The notes beneath the pieces are model-generated. The model saw nothing but the letters and a program-made list of their open reading frames with translations. It was not told the DNA's origin and ran no database searches. The position numbers and the translations under genes are program-made. DNA of 64,000 nucleotides from Pseudovirgaria hyperparasitica (taxonomy: Eukaryota): assembly GCA_010093815.1 (NCBI GenBank), contig ML996578.1; one strand, 5' to 3'. Below are positions 53,468-64,000 of the stretch, in pieces; within the stretch, counting starts at the first letter, position 1; every line of letters starts with the position of its first letter.

Positions 53468-56400
53468 CTACACCTTCCGCCGCAACGACTCGTCCCACAC
53501 GCAACACACCCCATGCGCCTCCAAATACTCATACACCTGCCACGCCGCGACTGGGTATCCGTGCTTGCTGGCATCCACCTCCACCTCCACTCCCTCCTCG
53601 ACTGCGCTGTCATCACTACCATCGCTGTTGTCATCCGCCCTCTTCTTCTTATCCTTTCCCTTCTTGTCCTTTTCCTTTCCCGTGTCCCCCTTCCCCATCC
53701 CCTTTGCCTTCTCATTCCCCTTCCCCCCTTTACCCGTGCCCTTGCCCCTCCCCCCTGTCCCCCTCCCCCTCCTATCAACCCACCCAGTCCGCACCCCTCT
53801 ACCACACAGCCACCCGGCCAACTGTCCCGGCGCAACCGGGTCATACAGCAGGATCCGCTCAAGCCAGCACAGTCTCGTCTTGTCCGCACTACCACCACCC
53901 CCCAACGCCGCCTCATCGCGCAGCGCCGCCGTAATTTGCGGAAAGAGCAGGGCGCGATGCGTGGGCCAGTCATCGACGTCGTCCTCATCACCAGCATCCG
54001 CCAATGCATCAGTCCGGACCTGTGCGGCGTTTGCATTCGCGTGTAGAGTCGGGCAGTCGGGGGTTTGGCTGAGTTGGAGCTCGAGCTGCAGGGCATTCAA
54101 GGGGCCAATCTGCACGTTCCTATCCCTCGTCGTACTCTTACCATTCTTCTTGTCCGTCTTGCGCGCTTTCGGTGGCGAGAGGCGCACGGGGGGCGAAGGG
54201 GGCAGGGCGGCGAGGTCCGAGTCTTCGATTTCGTCGTCGACGTATGATGTGTCGTCTGCTGCTGCTGTTGCTGATGGTGGGGTCTTGCGAGACTTTCTTG
54301 GTTTACTGGTGACTGGTGGGGCCGTTGCTGCAGGCTCGGCTGCTGCGTCTTTGCGGGGACGACCGACAGGACGCTTTGGGGGAGACGGCGATTCAGACAC
54401 GTCTGTCCTGCGAGGACGGCCGACGGGGCGTTTGGTCGGTGTTGTGGGTAGTGCGTCGACAACGACGGACTTCTTCTTCTTCTTATTTTGAGGGCTCAAC
54501 GTAGTGTGGAAAGGCCTTGCTGTGGGGACGGCTGATGCTTTGAAGGGCGCCGGCTGCGTGAAGCTGATGCGGGAGTTGGGTGTCAGCGACTTCAGGGCTA
54601 GTCTTGCTGCGCGGCACGGCGATTTCGCAGGTGCTTGGGTGAGGAAGCGCGATGGAGATGGTAGGGCAGAGTCATCGTTGCTTGATGGGGACGAGAGTGT
54701 CAGGGGAGGCGATGAGGTGATGGCGATGACCGATTGCTCGTTTGCCCATGTAGGTGGTAGTGGAGGAGAGATTGCGCTCAGCGTGTCGGTAGGTCGTAGT
54801 TTCGGCGAAGGCGTAGGAGTCAGGATTGGGGACGATATCAGGGAGATGAATGTCGCCTTGGGCGGCGGAGGTATCGCTGGAGCAGCGGTTTCTGGTCTCG
54901 GTGCCTCAGTGGCCACAGTCTCCTCTAGCACGTCAGAGGTGTCCCCTGTCTTCGGAGGCATCATAACAGTAACAGGTGTTGAGTTGACCGCCCCCCGAGA
55001 CTGCACAGGATCTTCAGGACGCTGCTCAGACGCCTCGAGCTGATCCGCCTCACCACTCTCGGTCTCCTCCCCAAGTTCAGCCTCCTCAGGCGACACTATC
55101 TGCGAGCTGCCCCTCTGCCACACGCCCTTGTCGCCAATAGCCGCGTCTCTCCACGCTGCCTCCCACAACGTCCTCGATCCCCGCACAGACGTCAGTCTCG
55201 AATCCGACAGCTCGGACCCACCAGTGTCCACAACTCCCGTACAGTCGTTGAAGGACATCTGCAATGCTCGAATGAACGAAGGCGACTCCGGCTGAGCAAG
55301 CTGACTCGATGTCCCGAATAAAAAGTCTTGCGTGTCAAGCTTCCGCAAGGCTGATTCAGGTGAGAGGAGCATCGGCACGACGACCGTAGCTTTCTTCTTG
55401 GGCGACGCCGCTCTCTTCCGCTTCCCGTTGGCCCTAGGAGCGGCCGGCTCGCAAGGAGCGCGTTTCTGACGCGGCTTGGATATCTTCCCTTTCCTCGGCA
55501 CGTCGTCCGTCCTCGGCACGGTCTTGGCTGATGCAAAAAACGGACTCTCGGACGGAGGAGCAGGGGCAGGGGGCTGTTCTACCACGCGATAATGCTCGGT
55601 AGCTCTGTCGGTGATTGTGGTAGGCCTCTTCCTTGACGGTCTCGGTTTCTTCACCCTCTCCGCAGCACTCTTTGCGACTTCAGGTCTTGATGTGGCAACT
55701 AGTTCTATCCGGCGACTTTTCGCAAGAGGATCTGTATTATTCGCAAGCTCGGGCATCTGGGGAGCACACGCAAAGCTTCCCACCATGCTCTGAAAAGCCT
55801 CCTGATGCTGGACCTTCTCTTGCGTATTGCTAATGATCGGCCCGTCATGTGTCCCATCGTCTTGTTCTGTATTACTTGTAGTATTCTTGACAGGCGTCCA
55901 CTCTGTCCTCCTCTGGACAGCTCCCTCCAAATCCAATTTGAGCGGCTCGGGCGTGCCGGCTTTGCTTGTGACAGACTTCTCTATTGCTTCCTTCGGGCCG
56001 AAATGCGATGACACCTTTCCCGTTGTTTTCTTCTTCGCTGTCGGTGCTGCAGCATCTCCCGTGCCCTTCGCAGTCTTCTTTGGCCCAACTCCCGGCTTAA
56101 CGACTTTCGGTTTCTTTATCCGTGACTGCTTAACCGCCTTCTCAGCCTTGTCTGTTGCTTCGTCATCGGCCTTGCGTTTCCGCTTTCTGGGCGCAGGCGT
56201 CTTCTTCGGCGGTGCATGCCCAGGCACCACCGTATCTCGTAGCTCCCGTAGCACAGCCGGGACAGCCTGCGCACTGATTGGCGGTGTATCCAGCTCGATG
56301 ACACTCTCCCCATCAGAATCGGGAATCTCGATCTTCGGTGCCAGCACCGTCTTCTTCGCTGGCCGGGCCTTCTTCTCCGCCGACTTCTCTGGCTCTTTCG

Positions 56401-56686
56401 CGACCTTTGGCGCTCTTGACTTTACAGGTTTCTTGGCCGCCTTGCTCTCTGCCTTCTGCGTGACATCCTCCGCTACTCTCGCCTCCAGACTCAGTCGCCT
56501 CTCTCTCACGAGCCCACTAACGCTGTGGAACCCAAACCCAGCAGCGCCATCGGGGACTGTCGCGGCACGGGAACCTGACTTGATTCCAGCGTCTCTGAAG
56601 CTCGTGAATGTCGACGGAGAAGGCAGTGTATCAGAAGAATTGCCGAGCGAACGGCGCCGCGAGGTGTTGTAGTCGGCGAGTTTCAT
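53468..56686 (-). CDS. SLX4: Structure-specific endonuclease subunit SLX4
   Basis: RRTEWTP, LLSPESA..QDFLFGTSSQL, LWEAAWRD, EIEDS and C-terminal Slx1-binding region LFPQIT..WLERILLYDPV..YLEAHGVCCVW. First ATG at 56686. Confidence 0.87.
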   Translation of the reverse strand: MKLADYNTSRRRSLGNSSDTLPSPSTFTSFRDAGIKSGSRAATVPDGAAGFGFHSVSGLVRERRLSLEARVAEDVTQKAESKAAKKPVKSRAPKVAKEPEKSAEKKARPAKKTVLAPKIEIPDSDGESVIELDTPPISAQAVPAVLRELRDTVVPGHAPPKKTPAPRKRKRKADDEATDKAEKAVKQSRIKKPKVVKPGVGPKKTAKGTGDAAAPTAKKKTTGKVSSHFGPKEAIEKSVTSKAGTPEPLKLDLEGAVQRRTEWTPVKNTTSNTEQDDGTHDGPIISNTQEKVQHQEAFQSMVGSFACAPQMPELANNTDPLAKSRRIELVATSRPEVAKSAAERVKKPRPSRKRPTTITDRATEHYRVVEQPPAPAPPSESPFFASAKTVPRTDDVPRKGKISKPRQKRAPCEPAAPRANGKRKRAASPKKKATVVVPMLLSPESALRKLDTQDFLFGTSSQLAQPESPSFIRALQMSFNDCTGVVDTGGSELSDSRLTSVRGSRTLWEAAWRDAAIGDKGVWQRGSSQIVSPEEAELGEETESGEADQLEASEQRPEDPVQSRGAVNSTPVTVMMPPKTGDTSDVLEETVATEAPRPETAAPAIPPPPKATFISLISSPILTPTPSPKLRPTDTLSAISPPLPPTWANEQSVIAITSSPPLTLSSPSSNDDSALPSPSRFLTQAPAKSPCRAARLALKSLTPNSRISFTQPAPFKASAVPTARPFHTTLSPQNKKKKKSVVVDALPTTPTKRPVGRPRRTDVSESPSPPKRPVGRPRKDAAAEPAATAPPVTSKPRKSRKTPPSATAAADDTSYVDDEIEDSDLAALPPSPPVRLSPPKARKTDKKNGKSTTRDRNVQIGPLNALQLELQLSQTPDCPTLHANANAAQVRTDALADAGDEDDVDDWPTHRALLFPQITAALRDEAALGGGGSADKTRLCWLERILLYDPVAPGQLAGWLCGRGVRTGWVDRRGRGTGGRGKGTGKGGKGNEKAKGMGKGDTGKEKDKKGKDKKKRADDNSDGSDDSAVEEGVEVEVDASKHGYPVAAWQVYEYLEAHGVCCVWDESLRRKV

Positions 56687-56943
56687 GACGATTGGGACGC
56701 GTGATAGCGAACGACATTTGAAGGCTTGCGAAGAGAGTCGTCGCAGTGGCAGTGAGTTGTTAGCCCTCAATGGCTTTCCAAACCGAGAGAAGCAAGCCAA
56801 GATGGCGGTTTGGGGCGACCGTGTTTGGTGTTTGATAGCGGTCTGCTGGATCTGGCGGGGAATTCCAGATCGGGCGGAGGACGGCCGGGGGTCGCATTCG
56901 CGCTAAGGTCCTGGCTTAACACGCAGTCACGTGGCAATCCCAC

Positions 56944-57423
56944 ATCCATAGTTACATGGGAAAGCTTGGCGCCCGATGTTCGCCCGTGTCACTAACACGC
57001 ACGATTTAGTATAAACGACATTTTCATCTATTACTACTATACTACGCTTATATAGTATCTATAACTATATAGTATAGTATTAAAGAGGTAGTATAACTAA
57101 TATATAGTACTATAGACCCCTAATACCTCCCCTATATCTATCTAGAGCGCCTTTAGATATAGGGGTATTTACCTAGCTAGACGTAAGAATATCTCTATAT
57201 AACTACTCTTTTTCTATAGTTTTAGAGGTATTATAAATAATATAAAGTAATATAAAGGCTATAGATATATAATAAGGATTATATAGAACTAGTATTTAGT
57301 AATATTTAGTACTATATAAGTATTATACGGTAGTAATAGATAAAAATATCGATCATACTAAATCGTGTGTGTTGGTGACAAGGGCGAACATCGGGCGCCA
57401 AGCTTTCCCATGTAACTATGGAT
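56944..57423. mobile_element. Non-autonomous DNA transposon (MITE) with ~80-bp TIRs and a RIP-mutated interior
   Basis: ATCCATAGTTACATGGGAAAGCTTGGCGCCCGATGTTCGCCC..ACGATTTAGTAT from 56944 is the near-perfect reverse complement of ~57345-57423. The interior is very AT/TpA-rich. No clear TSD. Confidence 0.85.
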
Positions 57424-57811
57424 ATACGGATGGGAAGGGCCGTTTAGGCATGGAAGCGATCGCGATATGATGCAGGTATAATCTCAGTCAATGCTTCTTC
57501 TATCTCCGAGATCACGAAATGGTATATCAATGCTCCATACGAAAACATCACTCAGACGAATTTTGTGGCAACGGAGTCTGACTGTATAATTCATAATTCA
57601 TGCATTCTTCTATTTCTGATATCCTCGTAGTGATTTCAGGATATAAAATTGCTCCGTGAACTGTATGAATGTCTCCAAGAACTCAAACCAACATACACCC
57701 AGCTCCTCCATACACAGTCGATCCACTTGCTTATGTCCATTCCACAAGTCCATGCCGTTCTCACCCGTTGGACGCAAAGAAACGTCCTGGGCTGCTTTCC
57801 CTCCGGGGTTT

Positions 57812-58108
57812 TCAATCATGATGCGGGGGATTGTTCTTTATAAGGTCCCACCCGAGTTCGATTCCCTTCGCGATGCCTTTTACGATGCCTTTTATGGCGC
57901 CCTTTGGGAGGCCTTTCGAGCCCCTAGGACTGATCACAGCATTGGCGTTCGCAGCATCGGCGTTCGCAATATCGGCGTTTCCTGCGTCGATGTCTACAGA
58001 TCTGCAGTCGAGGGGGCGATTTTCACCATAGCAGCTTCTGAACTTCGGATCGACATAGAGGGCGGCGGAGAGAGTGAGGAGAAGAGGAAGGATAGTAAGG
58101 AGCTTCAT
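57812..58108 (-). CDS. Small secreted protein, family copy A (98 aa), with a C-terminal KGxx glycine-zipper peptide
   Basis: Signal peptide MKLLTILPLLLTLSAA; AACATG start context; TATA at ~58246-58253; paralogous flanks shared with copies B and C. Confidence 0.75.
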   Translation of the reverse strand: MKLLTILPLLLTLSAALYVDPKFRSCYGENRPLDCRSVDIDAGNADIANADAANANAVISPRGSKGLPKGAIKGIVKGIAKGIELGWDLIKNNPPHHD

Positions 58109-58612
58109 GTTGATGCGGATGCAAGACAATATCTGGTCTGAAAGGGTTGAAGTAAGAGAGCGAATCCCGGGACCAGTACGGGAGAAGGATGATAGTGGTT
58201 GATCGTGTAGCGAAGGTTGCTCAGCTTGTGGAGTGTCTAGAGAGACTTATATACCCGTAGACTTGTCCTCACTCATCATGGGGTAGAAGGCACACGGGCC
58301 TTGAAAATTGGAAACATCCGGATTAGTTCGTGCATAGCTTCCACTTCTCTCAATTACCGTTGGAGGTGCCGATGAACTTCGAAGTGACCATCCTCCAGCT
58401 CGATCGCAAGTTCGAAACATAACCGGAGGCGCGATGACAACGCAGCGGTCTAAGACCGACATAATTATGAAACGGGAGTGCACGGAGGCACAGCTGACAC
58501 AAACAAGCATAGACAGCCTTCCATAATGTTTCGGTAGTGCATGTCTCAAACAAGTTTAATCTACGGCCGCACCACCCTGATATCAGTGCTACACCACTAC
58601 TGTCTTATATAG

Positions 58613-58939
58613 GTGAGCATCTATCGAGCACCCCAAAATAGCCTATCGAGCACCCATATTTTCTTCTTTAGACAGTAGTGTCGAGAGCTTAAAAATAGCA
58701 TCTTAGTATTTAGAACACATTTATAACGGGCCTATAAGTCGAAATCAGTTGAGATTACGTATATTACGTGTTATTATAAGGCCTATAAGTTGAAATTGGT
58801 TAAAATCACGTGTACTACGTATAATTCTAGAACAACCGAGTATATAAGCGTATTATTATAATGCTAAGCCGCTATTTTTAAGCTCCTAAGACTACTACCT
58901 AATTAAAGAAGGAGATGGGGGTGCTCGATAGATGCTCAC
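58613..58939. mobile_element. MITE with TIR GTGAGCATCTATCGAGCACCCC and an 8-bp TSD (hAT- or Mutator-like)
   Basis: Perfect 22-bp TIRs (58613-58634 / 58918-58939), extended by imperfect inverted matches. TSD ttatatag/tcatgtag. The paralogous empty site at ~60081-60100 lacks the element. Confidence 0.9.
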
Positions 58940-59068
58940 TCATGTAGAAGGATCTCCAACTCTTAGTAGATAATTTAGTATATACTGTAGTATCTTAGCA
59001 AGTCAATACACACTCTTACATCCATCCTATAAGTCCATACCTTTCTCACCCCTTTTGCGTGCTCTCTT

Positions 59069-59359
59069 TTATGGCTTTCCATCCCTGCCACTCCCCCTTG
59101 GCCCCCCGGCAGCAGCATGTGCCCCGACCAAGACATTCTTTGCCCAACGAGTGGACACACTCCAGATTTTAGCAATATCGGACAAATCATTGGTGTGTCT
59201 TGCGTTGATGTCTACAACCCCACCGGTAGGATCAGATAAATCACGAGGGGTAGGCCAATCGGGATAAGCGGGATGCGGGTTTTTATCTTCCGTAGGAGGT
59301 TTAATATAGATAGCAGCGGAGAGAGTGAGGAGAAGAGGAAGGACGGCAAGGAGCTTCAT
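59069..59359 (-). CDS. Small secreted protein, family copy B (96 aa)
   Basis: Signal peptide MKLLAVLPLLLTLSAA; same start context; TATA at ~59726-59733; paralogous promoter and 3'UTR. Confidence 0.72.
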   Translation of the reverse strand: MKLLAVLPLLLTLSAAIYIKPPTEDKNPHPAYPDWPTPRDLSDPTGGVVDINARHTNDLSDIAKIWSVSTRWAKNVLVGAHAAAGGPRGSGRDGKP

Positions 59360-59396
59360 GTTGATGCGGATACAAGATAAGATCCGATTTAAAAAG

Positions 59397-59622
59397 GTCG
59401 AAGTAAGAGAGGAGTCGAAGTAAGAGAGGAGTCGAAGTAAGAGAGGAGTCGAAGTAAGAGAGGAGTCGAAGTAAGAGAGNNNNNNNNNNNNNNNNNNNNN
59501 NNNNNNNNNNNNNNNNNNNNNNNNNNNNNNNNNNNNNNNGTCGAAGTAAGAGAGGAGTCGAAGTAAGAGAGGAGTCGAAGTAAGAGAGGAGTCGAAGTAA
59601 GAGAGGAGTCGAAGTAAGAGAG
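59397..59622. repeat. 17-bp minisatellite GTCGAAGTAAGAGAGGA spanning an assembly gap (N 59480-59539), in the 5' leader of copy B
   Basis: About 10 identical units are visible around the gap. Copies A and C have a single diverged unit. Confidence 0.92.
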
Positions 59623-60274
59623 CGAAACCCGGGACCAGGACGGGAGAAGGATGATAGTGGTTGAATGGGAGGCGCGGTGAATGCGTGCGGCGAAAGTAGC
59701 TCAACATGTAGAGTGTCTGGAGGGATTTATATACCCGTAGACTTGTCCTCACTAATCATGGGGTAGAACTTGGAAGGCACACTGGCCTTGTATACTTGAA
59801 ACATTGTTGGTCCGCGTCTATCAATTACCGAGACGACGAAGTGACCACCCTCCAGCTCGATCGCAACATAACCTGGGGCGCGATGACAACGCAGCGGTCT
59901 AAGACCGTTATGATTATAAAGCGTGAGTGCACGGAGGCACAGCTGATACGAGCACAGACGGCCTTCCATTTCTCGGTTCATGGAATCGGCAGAAAAAGAT
60001 GGAGGATGATTGAGTAGTGCATGTCTTAAAGAAGTTTAATTTATAGCTACACCACCCTGATATCAATGCTACACCACTACTGTCTCATATACAAGGATCT
60101 CCAACTCCTAGTAGATAATTCGGTATATAGTATCTTCTCGCCCAGCTAGTCGATACAACCACTTACATCCATCCCACAAGTCCATATCTTTCTCATCCCA
60201 CAAGTTCATATCCTTCTCACCCCTGAGGCACAAAGAAGCGGCATTCTGTGCTCCTTTTCCTTGGGGGTTTCACA

Positions 60275-61213
60275 CTATCCTGAACCCGTGAAAAACTTGA
60301 CCACGCTCGAGAAAGCCGTTGCTAGCGCCCTTTCTATCAGGTTTCCGACTAACACGTCAGTGCTACGAGTGGCCAGATTCCTAGCATGTACAGTGCTGAC
60401 ATTGGCTCCTGCGGTGGGCTGCGCACATTCGGCGTTCATCGCAGCGGTCGTGTTGGTATTGTTGGCAGTTCCTGCGGTATTGCCATACATAGCGTTGGCG
60501 TTTCCAGTGTTGACTTGCCCAGCATCGGCTTTTCCAGCATTGACTTTCCCGGCATTGGTATATCCAGTATTGGCGTTTCCACCTTTGCCATACATAGTAT
60601 TGGCGTTACCAGCATTGATATTGCCATTGTTAGTGTTGGTGTTTGCAACGTTGCTGTTACCAGCATTGCCGTACATGGCATTGCCATTTCCAGTGTTGGT
60701 GTTTGCAATGTTGCTGTTACCAGCATTGCCGTACATAGCATTGCCATTTCCAGTGTTGGTGTTCCCAATGTTGCTGTTACCAGCATTGCCGTACATAGCA
60801 TTGCCATTTCCAGTGTTGGTGTTTGCAACATTACCAGTACCAGCATTGCCGTACATAGCATTCCCATTTCCAGCATTGCCGTTTGCAATATTAGCATTAC
60901 CAGCGTTGCCGTACATAGCATTCCCATTTCCAGAATTACCGTTTGCAACATTGCCGTTACCAGCATTATTGTCGTCCGCAGCTTTGCCGTACATAGCATT
61001 GCCGTTTCCAACATTAGGGCTGTCCGCAGTATTGCCATTTCCTGTCTCGCTATACATAGCATTGGCGTTTCCTGCATCGCTTCCTGCAGCATTGCTGTTT
61101 ATAGCGTTCTCTTCGTCATGACGAGCCTTAAGAGCGGCACTTCCATCGCGAAGACCAATAGTGAGGGCGGAGGAGAGGGTGAGGAAAAGGGGAACGACAG
61201 TAAGGAGCTTCAT
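60275..61213 (-). CDS. Secreted Asn/Gly pentapeptide-repeat protein, family copy C (312 aa)
   Basis: Signal peptide MKLLTVVPLFLTLSSA; 60-bp DNA tandem repeats encoding NAGNS-NIANT-NTGNG-NAMYG; TATA at ~61385-61392; paralogous flanks. Confidence 0.82.
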   Translation of the reverse strand: MKLLTVVPLFLTLSSALTIGLRDGSAALKARHDEENAINSNAAGSDAGNANAMYSETGNGNTADSPNVGNGNAMYGKAADDNNAGNGNVANGNSGNGNAMYGNAGNANIANGNAGNGNAMYGNAGTGNVANTNTGNGNAMYGNAGNSNIGNTNTGNGNAMYGNAGNSNIANTNTGNGNAMYGNAGNSNVANTNTNNGNINAGNANTMYGKGGNANTGYTNAGKVNAGKADAGQVNTGNANAMYGNTAGTANNTNTTAAMNAECAQPTAGANVSTVHARNLATRSTDVLVGNLIERALATAFSSVVKFFTGSG

Positions 61214-64000
61214 GTTGGTGCTGATGCAAGATAGACAGACAGACTTGCAACTAAGATCTGATTGAAAAGGTCGAATTAAGTGAGCGAACCGCGTGACCAG
61301 CACACAGGAAAAACAATGACGATTAGATGGAAAGTGTGGTGATTGCGTATAGCGAAAGGTAAGAATGTGTCCTTTCTGAAGAGATTTATATACCTGTAGA
61401 CAGCCTGGTTCTCACTTACCATTACTTAAAAGGCGCACTGGCCTTGAAAATTTGAATCATTGCTCGGGCGTATCTTCTTCCACTTCTCTCCATCTCCACA
61501 AAGGGAGACGAAGTGACCAGCTTCAATCGTAGCATGACCTGAGGCACAATGACAGTCGCCATCGATGAACCGCTGCTGCCAAGAGTAAACAAACGCCAGG
61601 GCCTGAAACTGAGCGTCATTAGACGCATACGACCATAAAGCATGCACTGAGGCACAGTAGAGACAAGTACTGACAGACTTCCAGAATGTTTTCGAGATCT
61701 TCGCCCGGGTGTGGGGCAATTGTTTCAGAGGCTCGGTAGATGTCGTGGCGTGACCGATTAGCGTCTTCCTCAGACCTGTAACGATGTACTGGTGACTCTT
61801 GCTTCTTGATACTGGAGTGTATGATCTTTAAAAGGGCCGATTAGAACATGGTGACAACCTTGAATGGAACAATGAGATGAAACTGGGTTAGTGTGAAGAC
61901 GTGAAGCGTAGCGCTCGGACTTCGAAGACGAGTAGTCCAAGTTATCCATCTGCGAAATGGCAAAGAGGAGAAAACAAATGTGGTTCGAAACAGTGGATGA
62001 TCGGAATGCAAAGCGTGCTTTTACGGTGGCCTGATACCTTTTAGACCGGACAGTGACATGCATTGTCGAACCTTCGTTGAATCGGACCTACCGTTCAGTC
62101 GATCCATACTCTTAATGGTATATCGATACTTCATAAGGAAAATTTTCTTCATACCGTTGCCGCTTCAATGGACACAGAGGAGTGTGTAGCACCACGGTGC
62201 CTCAAGGAGATATTGTTTGACTAGCTCTCGACGCAGACGCTATCCTCAAATCATATATGGAATTACTGATTGTGGTTAGGGCTGTCGGAGACAGCAGCGT
62301 TACGATTGTCCTGTTATCTCTTGCCTCTTTGCCGCAGATACTGATACCCCAAGGCAGCCATCTGCTCTTGAGCATTTCTAGCAATGCTGAACACATCCTA
62401 TTGCGTTTCCCGAGCCCCTATGAGCCAAGCCGTAGAGCTGATAGAACTCACCTGTTGTCGCAGACGCTATGCAGTACCATCAGATAGAGCTCAATAGGAG
62501 TAAGGATCCCAGTTCTCAAACTTAGAGAGCAAGATACTCGTACGAAATCATCTATAAGAGCGATGTCGGCGTCACAATATTTCGAACACGAAGACTTTAG
62601 CAAGAATGTCCGGCCAGAATTCTCCAGGCATGAAGAAGGTCCCCGGTGCATGTTGATAGTGGTTGGCTAGCACCGTTCATAGCAACCGCAAGTCCAGCGA
62701 ATGCGGGCTAAAGCGTCAGTAGGCAGTAGAGCACACGGCGGTGATCGGATGCCGGCCGAGTATCATACTTTTCAACATGTATTCTGTTGCAAAATGATGA
62801 TTGAGTGCTGCGTATTGTCGCCAGGCGCAGAGCAGGCTGACTTATGTCGGCAGCGGGGTGTCGGCAAAAGACCATGTCTCCCTGATTATCGATCGCAGTA
62901 GTCATATTATCTCTTATAGCAATAAGAAATTTAGCCACATCGAGTTTCCAGGCTGTATCTAGAATACGATGCGCCTTGAAACGAGCCGAGCGCAAGCATC
63001 GTGAGAGGCGTGTGGTGTCGTGGGCATGTCGGCCGGGTCCGACAGTAGACACTACATAGGACGAGAATAGCGTCGCCGGCTAGGAATGCTGACAATGACG
63101 CAGATCTTGACGAATGCCATGCGCGATAGATCCAAGTGTAACGCGCGACCTGGGGCTATCTTCGTGGTTTTTGAGCTGCGTAGACAGGTCCTCAAGTTTC
63201 AACTTCCTCAGGAGTCAAGACAGTCTGTTTAGACTATTGGTTTAGTAAGATAAGACGTCTCCTAGAGCGAAGTGGAACTTTAGAAGCGAGAGTTCCGTAG
63301 TCGCGACATAAAGCGGTGCGTAGTAAGCGAATTGTATAGACAGAGCTATGATGAACATCATACAGTATATGTGGCGTTGAATGTGGCGGTGACGGCAGAA
63401 GCGGGTCTGGGCAGGCCCGCACCGTTCAGCCCTTTCTGTTCACAGCCAATCAGCACTCATCCCTTTATCATAAATGACAACAAACACATACACAAGGCAA
63501 GAAAAGACACCCCACTTCCCCACAATAAAAAGACGACCACTTCCGCCCCAAATGACGGCCGAGCAGTTTTATCATCAAAGCAACGGGGCGTGACGCACAG
63601 TGTAGAAGGAAAAGAAGACAAAAGGATCGAGTCCACGGCCGGGCCCGCTTTCACATCTCCTATTACTCCTCCCATCTGCCGTCCTCCGCCCTCCGTCTTC
63701 CGTTCCACGCGGCCCTCTAACACTCCCTGCAGTAGTAGCAGAACTTCCCGTCCCCTCCTACTAAATGCTACGTAGAAGGACTTTGGTCTAGCCAAACGGC
63801 CATTTCCATCCTCCACTAGACTATGGTGCGGCCATGGGTTAAGGCCTTATCATTGATGGCCATTATTCGTCCTGCCATGTCCGGATCTTCTGTCCTCGTG
63901 TCGGGTTCTTTCCAAATGATTATATGTCCTACCTGGGTCGCTGTTTCTTCCATTTTTATGCATTGTAGGGCTGTATCGACATCCACAATCACAATCACAT

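Follow-up and report, generated by a model that had tools for sequence, protein, structure and literature searches.

Three tandem genes for predicted secreted, repeat-driven proteins share their flanks and differ in their cargo in the fungus Pseudovirgaria hyperparasitica

The window considered here is a 64,000-nucleotide (nt) stretch of contig ML996578.1 from Pseudovirgaria hyperparasitica (assembly GCA_010093815.1), in which we analysed positions 57400–62200 on the minus strand by reading the sequence together with a listing of its open reading frames (ORFs). Three intronless ORFs lie there head to tail, all on the minus strand, with homologous start codons at 58108, 59359 and 61213; the ORF listing confirms this arrangement, which a preliminary description of the same DNA, made from its letters alone, had proposed. 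We refer to them as genes 1, 2 and 3 and to their products as P0001, P0002 and P0003, which contain two, zero and one Cys residues, respectively. Each gene sits in a unit with its own promoter region and 3′ untranslated region (UTR). Alignments, blastn and a repeat finder agree on the central proposal of that description, namely a tandem three-gene family in which conserved flanks enclose a strongly diverged mature part. The features of the cluster are as follows.

57693–57811, minus strand: gene 1 3′UTR, with a conserved motif at 57738–57768 (repeat families D8 and D10; local alignment).
57812–58108, minus strand: gene 1 coding sequence (P0001, 98 amino acids); predicted signal peptide, short polar stretch with two Cys, about four pentads (GNADI ANADA ANANA...) and a C-terminal amphipathic segment, (K-G-I/A-x)n.
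58109–58603, minus strand: unit 1 5′UTR, TATA block (~58247–58254) and conserved upstream and spacer sequence (families D5–D7, D9, D11–D13 and D16; blastn; alignment).
58985–59068, minus strand: gene 2 3′UTR, with a conserved motif at 59023–59053 (repeat finder, local alignment).
59069–59359, minus strand: gene 2 coding sequence (P0002, 96 amino acids); predicted signal peptide, Pro-rich stretch, pentad relic VDINARHTND and C-terminal amphipathic segment.
59360–60129, minus strand: unit 2 5′UTR, TATA block (~59727–59734) and conserved upstream and spacer sequence (repeat finder, blastn, alignment).
60145–60274, minus strand: gene 3 3′UTR, with the motif tandemly duplicated (60170–60224, 24-nt period; repeat finder, local alignment).
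60275–61213, minus strand: gene 3 coding sequence (P0003, 312 amino acids); predicted signal peptide, ~222 amino acids of G-N-A-x-x pentads and a predicted C-terminal helix.
60479–61079, minus strand: coding tandem-repeat array of gene 3 (15-, 30- and 60-nt periods; families D1 and D3).
61214–61691, minus strand: unit 3 5′UTR, TATA block (~61386–61393) and an upstream sequence that has diverged further (~67% to units 1 and 2).

All three proteins begin with MKLL(T/A)(I/V)(L/V)PL(L/F)LTLS(A/S)A, a pattern in which 11 of the first 16 residues are invariant (M1, K2, L3, L4, P8, L9, L11, T12, L13, S14 and A16), and of the 21 N-terminal residues, 16 are the same in genes 1 and 2. By our own heuristic these N termini have the features of a signal peptide, that is, a basic MK start, a hydrophobic core (mean Kyte–Doolittle value 2.3–2.7 over 10 residues) and small residues at −3/−1 near residues 14–16, and secretion of P0001–P0003 is predicted on that basis. 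Upstream, a 27-nt TATA block (family D13) occurs in three copies that are 89% identical and lie 146–375 nt 5′ of each ATG. A three-unit alignment, made after taking out a 335-bp insertion and a 5′UTR minisatellite (both described below), gave 430 identical bases out of 498 (86%) for units 1 and 2 over the stretch that runs from the spacer up to the ATG, 37 out of 40 in the following columns (681–720), which begin at the ATG, and 27 out of 35 at the 3′UTR motif. The repeat finder returned several upstream blocks that are 86–97% identical between units 1 and 2, as well as a block common to the units that spans the 5′UTR and the signal peptide; in blastn, unit 1 matched unit 2 at E 5e-84 and unit 3 at E 6e-26. 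The 3′UTR motif is present once 3′ of genes 1 and 2 and as two tandem copies 3′ of gene 3. The signal peptide, TATA block, upstream sequence and 3′UTR motif that had been listed as shared were thus all recovered, and blastn of the units against the whole 64-kb window found exactly three copies and no fourth.

A coding reading of the 3′UTR motif was rejected: one frame of the motif is open downstream of genes 1 and 3, but in gene 2 that frame contains a stop, and the offsets relative to the frames of the main ORFs differ. There is no case for a structured RNA in the 3′UTR (consensus fold −3.15 kcal/mol, one compensatory pair), Rfam returned no match at E ≤ 1 over 56800–62300, and a bacterial-type promoter and terminator scan, a type of scan not relevant to a fungus, remained at the level of shuffled sequence. 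The 5′UTR of gene 2 carries a perfect 17-nt minisatellite (59397–59622; GTCGAAGTAAGAGAGGA on the plus strand) that occupies 59397–59479 and 59540–59622, where 4.9 copies stand to either side of an assembly gap of 60 N (59480–59539), which leaves its total length uncertain; the 17-nt element is single copy in units 1 and 3. At 59707, immediately past the TATA block, lies an upstream ATG whose frame runs through the 17-nt array and coincides with that of gene 2.

Identity between units 1 and 2 is lost right after the signal-peptide cleavage region, and a forced alignment of their mature regions has identical bases at 121 of 225 positions (54%). At the other end, local alignment places the return of homology between genes 1 and 3 at 7–8 nt before the stop codons, from where it continues through the 3′UTR, and that for gene 2 at 15–17 nt after the stop. 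These points of loss and return place the limits of the variable segment at the signal-peptide cleavage region and at the stop codon. The mature regions had been described as nearly unalignable, which stands for the forced alignment, but gene 1 shares an in-frame block with gene 2 and another with gene 3. When local DNA alignments of the mature regions were judged against 100 shuffles, only two blocks scored above all of them: a 28-nt block between genes 1 and 2 (V-D-I-D-A-G-N-A-D versus V-D-I-N-A-R-H-T-N-D; score 31, shuffle maximum 22) and a 53-nt block between genes 1 and 3 that lies within repeats (score 36, shuffle maximum 31). BLASTP of P0001 against P0003 gave E 2e-9.

What the three cargoes have in common is a repeat of five residues, for the most part G/A-N-A-x-x. 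About four pentads occur in gene 1 (15-nt period, 2.9 copies by the repeat finder), gene 2 retains a relic only, and gene 3 has ~44 pentads over ~222 of its 312 residues, with G-N-A at pentad positions 1–3. Within gene 3, five regular 20-residue units, GNGNAMYGNAGNSNxANTNT, recur with a 60-nt period (5.8 copies, 88% matches), and MYG occurs eight times in the repeats. The ratio of non-synonymous to synonymous differences (pN/pS) among these five units is ~0.32 over 10 pairs, which fits constraint at the protein level, from a small sample of units that are not independent of one another. What had been described as a polar or acidic spacer is this repeat array, whose length varies greatly from gene to gene, and is not a conserved pro-region. 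The C terminus of gene 1 is built differently, from a 12-nt repeat that encodes K-G-(A/I)-(I/V/A) four times and gives rise to its i/i+4 lysine stripe.

Contigs of four runs (X1–X4), which carry one organism label, were compared with the cluster over 57400–59396; X1 and X2 may have supplied the sequence of the window itself, and X3 and X4 belong to another study and are of unknown kind. A 440-nt contig of X3 is identical over 58987–59396 (410 nt), covering gene 2 and its UTRs, and a 782-nt contig of the same run matches the signal-peptide segment with eight differences, its loose ends reading as gene 3. Going by these two contigs, a second sample has genes 2 and 3 in unchanged form. X3 and X4 yielded no contig on gene 1 or on the intergenic parts and are uninformative on absence.

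We consider the best explanation of the locus, with a probability of roughly 0.6, to be a tandem array, restricted to a lineage, whose three intronless genes encode secreted, repeat-driven candidate effectors or antimicrobials. The array would have arisen by duplication of a unit of ~1.2–1.5 kb. Kept between the copies are the spacer, TATA promoter, 5′UTR, ATG context, signal peptide and 3′UTR; remodelled is the part from the signal-peptide cleavage region to the stop codon, which consists largely of short in-frame tandem repeats. Because the non-coding flanks of units 1 and 2 are ~86% identical and yet the cargo is nearly unalignable, point substitution alone would be insufficient. Given how many in-frame repeats of 12, 15 and 60 nt there are, most of the change in the cargo would stem from replication slippage or from unequal exchange within the coding minisatellites, with a possible contribution from selection for change, from gene conversion of the flanks or from both. 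The products would be secreted, Cys-poor proteins with a low-complexity or β-solenoid-like middle and a C-terminal amphipathic helix, which would act outside the cell, at the surface or membrane of a host or competitor, and probably as whole proteins rather than as released peptides.

Searches for relatives bear on the lineage restriction. A word-indexed protein search with P0001–P0003 gave no match at E ≤ 0.01 among targets of 0.55–1.75 times the query length. A profile search with the three-sequence alignment against 1.84 billion representatives gave three matches at E ≤ 0.001, which we rejected as inflated by repeats: they are internally repetitive, scored over 3–10 stretches and lack a signal peptide, and their best pairwise BLASTP alignment is 27% identity over 60 amino acids (E 5e-4). 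In a metagenome scan, none of 118 pattern matches was confirmed by tblastn, and a scan with a DNA pattern of the signal-peptide region had no match. Pfam returned only sub-threshold signals, such as DUF6639 for P0001 (16 bits, cut-off 27), a sequence search of the PDB with P0003 found nothing at E ≤ 10, and the Atlas held no usable feature match for P0001 or P0003, with the structural neighbours of P0003 all below the bar for naming.

An alternative that we hold to be doubtful, although several observations speak for it, is that the genes encode prepro-peptide precursors, from which a Kex2-like or other protease, cutting at a single Arg (ISPR, INAR, VHAR/LATR), releases a lytic amphipathic C-terminal peptide of 29–43 residues. 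The amphipathic C-terminal segment itself holds up: taken as the maximal 18-residue hydrophobic moment and compared with 500 shuffles per protein, the strongest amphipathicity is C-terminal in all three, at residues 75–92 of P0001, 60–77 of P0002 and 291–308 of P0003 (reached by 15, 27 and 11 of the 500 shuffles, respectively). Models of P0003 and P0001 obtained with AlphaFold2 (AF2) from single sequences are of low confidence overall (predicted local distance difference test (pLDDT) 49 and 56), and their best parts are a helix at 69–92 of P0001, in blocks at pLDDT 68–73, and a C-terminal helix at 278–309 of P0003, in blocks at pLDDT 73–75. In gene 1, however, the amphipathic periodicity is an automatic consequence of the 12-nt (four-residue) repeat.

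As for the Arg sites, the available text of PMC8528282 gives a relaxed Kex2 motif with Arg at P1, Pro or an aliphatic residue at P4 and tolerance at P2. ISPR, LATR and LKAR agree with it, whereas Ala at P2, as in INAR and VHAR, is not among the residues listed there as tolerated. Of the 14 Arg residues, 11 fall within the pattern [LIVAP]xxR, which has low specificity, since L, I, V, A and P make up 29–45% of these proteins. With four or five Arg residues per protein, one at 30–45 residues from the C terminus is expected by chance (~0.6 by our estimate for gene 1). The dibasic sites KR, RR, KK and RK are absent from P0001, P0002 and P0003, and there is no conserved pro-region. Moreover, where gene 2 has the Arg of INAR, the in-frame alignment shows the A-G-N pentad's Gly in genes 1 and 3; that Arg is thus a replacement within the repeat, the Arg positions are not homologous, and INAR does not correspond to the ISPR found in gene 1. 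The conserved prepro layout with an Arg processing site that the preliminary description had envisaged is therefore not borne out, and proteolytic release of the C-terminal helix appears feasible without being indicated.

Somewhat less likely still is that gene 3 alone matters, as a functional Asn-rich β-solenoid or a surface or wall repeat protein with 20 amino acids per coil, and that genes 1 and 2 are collapsed derivatives with little or no function. The strict five-residue periodicity over ~222 amino acids and the 60-nt super-repeat would suit a solenoid, as would the low pN/pS among the units and the strands that AF2 places every 20 residues across 100–193 of P0003, at pLDDT ~50–58 only. 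Genes 1 and 2 retain just four pentads and a relic, and the Atlas contains P0003 letter for letter, and not P0001; the identical record implies that some gene caller predicted P0003, and it may come from the same genome. On the other side, Foldseek of the low-confidence P0003 model against the PDB returned one match, at E 7.7, with nothing usable, and Pfam scored P0003 against Pentapeptide_2 (PF01469) at 10.2 bits (E 0.72) with a cut-off of 26.4. In addition, the frames of genes 1 and 2 are open to the homologous stop position, which is unexpected for decaying copies.

We think it improbable that the units are not genes at all, that is, that they are a repeated non-coding or mobile element with incidental or recently dead ORFs. 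The lack of homologues and the absence of the exact proteins from a large collection would agree with it, as would the weak codon-usage signal and the insertions resembling miniature inverted-repeat transposable elements (MITEs) that, with the minisatellites, mark the region as unstable. Against it stand the homologous ATGs, the signal-peptide pattern and the nearly homologous ends that persist despite turnover, the TATA block 5′ of each ATG and the restriction to three copies in the window. When the mature regions were shuffled, the frame stayed open in 155 of 5,000 cases for gene 1, 162 of 5,000 for gene 2 and 0 of 5,000 for gene 3 (3.1%, 3.2% and 0%), from which we conclude that the open frames are not due to chance. 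Among the records listed for runs X1–X4 (111 further pieces are unlisted), the only extra ones on the 5′UTR and signal-peptide segment are those that carry gene 3, a weak argument against a fourth copy whose 5′ end would be similar at 85% or more. Least credible, and close to refuted, is a RiPP (a peptide made by ribosomes and modified after translation) or KEP/ustiloxin-type precursor (KEP, Kex2-processed repeat protein) from which the gene 3 repeats (core ~A-M-Y-G) would be excised and modified, as the signal peptide and many near-identical repeats with an invariant Tyr core (the eight MYG) recall the KEP/dikaritin outline in the available text of PMC6339444, but the defining KR/RR/KK between repeats is absent and no UstYa/DUF3328, tyrosinase or other tailoring family appears in the 31 ORFs scanned from 40 to 64 kb, the window ending 2.3 kb past gene 3.

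Several points weigh against the array of secreted, repeat-driven proteins that we favour. Transcription and secretion of the three genes rest on prediction, codon-usage scoring gives a weak signal that does not separate the frames of gene 2, and both the pN/pS sample and the confidence of the AF2 models are low. An exact look-up in a collection of 15 billion proteins found none of the three, and with no relative in the protein, profile or metagenome searches, cross-species conservation is not demonstrable. With three copies, the shares of slippage, selection and gene conversion are inseparable. Finally, antisense ORFs at 57665–58141 and 60386–61234 (both on the plus strand; 158 and 282 amino acids) span genes 1 and 3 entirely; they are probably a by-product of a repeat composition poor in stop codons. 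Taking the plus strand as the coding strand over genes 1 and 3 was considered and rejected: gene 2 has no full-length equivalent there, and the ATG, signal peptide and TATA block are all on the minus strand.

Lineage-specific tandem clusters of secreted-protein genes are known in filamentous fungi, for example the effector clusters of smuts and the secreted-protein families of rusts, to go by the available text of PMC4081816 and PMC3253089. The present cluster resembles them in its tandem duplicates, conserved signal peptide, fast mature part, lack of outside homologues and transposable-element insertions; it differs in being Cys-poor, in a divergence tied to coding minisatellites and in the conservation of the entire non-coding unit. 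In operational terms, the three genes fall in the class of small secreted proteins or candidate effectors, having a predicted signal peptide, small size, no known domain and a lineage-restricted occurrence, gene 3 (312 amino acids) reaching the upper limit of size. Gene 3 can also be set beside secreted effectors that contain repeats, such as Rsp3 of Ustilago maydis (PMC4617103 and PMC5923269, in their available text). Like them, it combines a signal peptide with a long array of short imperfect tandem repeats, but its repeat is a five-residue, Asn-rich one, and no sequence similarity to any protein was found. Repeat arrays of secreted effectors are typically length-polymorphic.

The preliminary description had drawn a comparison with conotoxins, amphibian antimicrobial peptides (AMPs) and some fungal effector families. 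Conotoxin and frog-skin AMP prepro genes have conserved signal peptides and UTRs, a divergent mature part and a conserved pro-region that ends in a basic processing site, likewise conserved. Our genes share with these the conserved signal peptide and flanks, the very divergent mature part and the amphipathic C-terminal segment; they differ in having neither a conserved pro-region nor a conserved or dibasic site, and in being single-exon, fungal and only three in number. KEPs are defined, in the available text of PMC6339444, by a signal peptide, at least three repeats separated by KR/RR/KK and repeats that make up at least 15% of the protein. Here a signal peptide is predicted by heuristic and repeats exceed 15% in P0003 only (~222 of 312 residues), and as no KR/RR/KK separates the repeats, the three proteins fall outside that definition. 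K2PP (Kex2-processed pro-domain) effectors carry KR, RR or LxxR in their first half, after disorder-promoting residues (PMC8528282, available text). LxxR, a pattern of low specificity, occurs as LKAR at 28–31 in P0003 and LDCR at 33–36 in P0001, and P0002 has no site with Leu at P4. The likeness to KEPs and K2PPs thus consists of predicted secretion, the repeats of gene 3 and the candidate sites LKAR (28–31) and LATR (280–283), of which LxxR alone is weak evidence.

Dikaritin (ustiloxin-type) precursors have core repeats flanked by Kex2 sites and neighbours of the UstYa/DUF3328 type that act in tailoring; dibasic sites are absent here, and so is UstYa/DUF3328 among the 31 ORFs of 40–64 kb. The mycobacterial pentapeptide motif of NxGxGNxG type, which we take to underlie PF01469, invites comparison with the five-residue periodicity of gene 3 (a small residue, Asn, then an aliphatic or small residue), in which four pentads make up each 20-residue super-unit. 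The differences are a central residue that is mostly Ala, not Leu or Phe, the eukaryotic and predicted secreted nature of the protein, and the low Pfam score given above; of the pentapeptide families PF00805 and PF01469, neither reached its cut-off and only PF01469 appeared. Such families have a right-handed quadrilateral β-helix with four pentads per coil, a fold that P0003 may or may not adopt: its sequence has periods of 5 and 20 residues and the AF2 strands recur every 20, at low confidence, with no usable Foldseek match in the PDB.

The best-supported placement of the locus, judged from its sequence, is as an orphan member of a well-documented kind, the tandem, fast-evolving, lineage-specific secreted-protein cluster; that the tandem family is young is likewise the best-supported view. 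It had been called undescribed, and this is right in so far as no search found a relative; a literature search for conserved signal peptides with hypervariable mature regions in fungi also brought up no account of the family, which does not prove it unpublished. The kind of locus is a familiar one.

The cluster lies among insertions, one of which separates two units:

58604–58938, no strand assigned: AT-rich MITE-like insertion of 335 bp, located between the 3′ end of gene 2 and the gene 1 promoter; its terminal inverted repeats are nested (29 nt, 90% complementary).

That these 335 bp are an insertion follows from an X1/X2 contig of the paralogous spacer, which joins the positions 58603/58939; the element is missing from that spacer, which lies between genes 3 and 2. 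Downstream of gene 1, a second AT-rich element (56944–57423, GC 0.32) has inverted arms of 114 nt that are 89% complementary, and its edge is a high-copy repeat, given a summed depth of 13,672 in the 57400–57466 bin of run X1 compared with ~271 next to it. A compartment affected by both MITEs and repeat-induced point mutation (RIP) had been proposed. MITE-like insertions are indeed present, but the cluster as a whole has unremarkable RIP indices (TpA/ApT 0.87, (CpA+TpG)/(ApC+GpT) 1.17), and RIP-like composition is confined to the two inverted-repeat elements, 56944–57423 (1.43 and 0.42) and 58604–58938. A 28-nt direct repeat (82% identical) flanks the cluster at 57518–57545 and 62114–62141; it may be due to chance or mark the edge of an older duplication or insertion.

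Pfam scans of the window bear out the neighbouring block of housekeeping genes that had been noted: tuberin/TSC2 (whose ORF strongly matches PDB entries of tuberin fragments), a cyclin, Cse1, an SNF2 helicase, a CAP59-type mannosyltransferase and SUR7 are ordinary fungal genes, and a Na+/H+ exchanger lies at 49.8–52.8 kb. It is followed at 53.5–56.9 kb by a weakly Slx4-like ORF (53471–56902, minus strand), an open frame of 1,144 codons whose sole Pfam signal is a weak Slx4 C-terminal match below the cut-off (E 1.2e-4); long ORFs overlap on both strands of this GC-rich region. Gene content and long uninterrupted ORFs by themselves suggest a fungal source, probably a filamentous ascomycete.

A bolder version of events, which we regard as a long shot on the sequence evidence, can be summarized as "fixed chassis, variable cargo": an invariant cassette of promoter, signal peptide and 3′UTR would surround coding minisatellites of 12, 15 and 60 nt, slippage in which would make new amphipathic or β-solenoid peptides de novo, to be cut at monobasic [L/I/V/A/P]-x-x-Arg sites into membrane-active peptides. 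If true, it would be a fungal counterpart of the diversification of conotoxins and frog-skin AMPs, reached by another mutational route. On the array reading that we favour, the locus adds an orphan family, so called for its lack of detectable relatives, of candidate effectors or antimicrobials, and adds no new principle. The Asn-rich pentad array of gene 3 would be of structural interest if the solenoid fold is true, and in gene 1 a 12-nt repeat has yielded what is predicted to be an amphipathic helix. If expressed, the three genes would be a compact case of how new secreted proteins arise, with the export signals kept by duplication and the exported part rebuilt by in-frame repeats.

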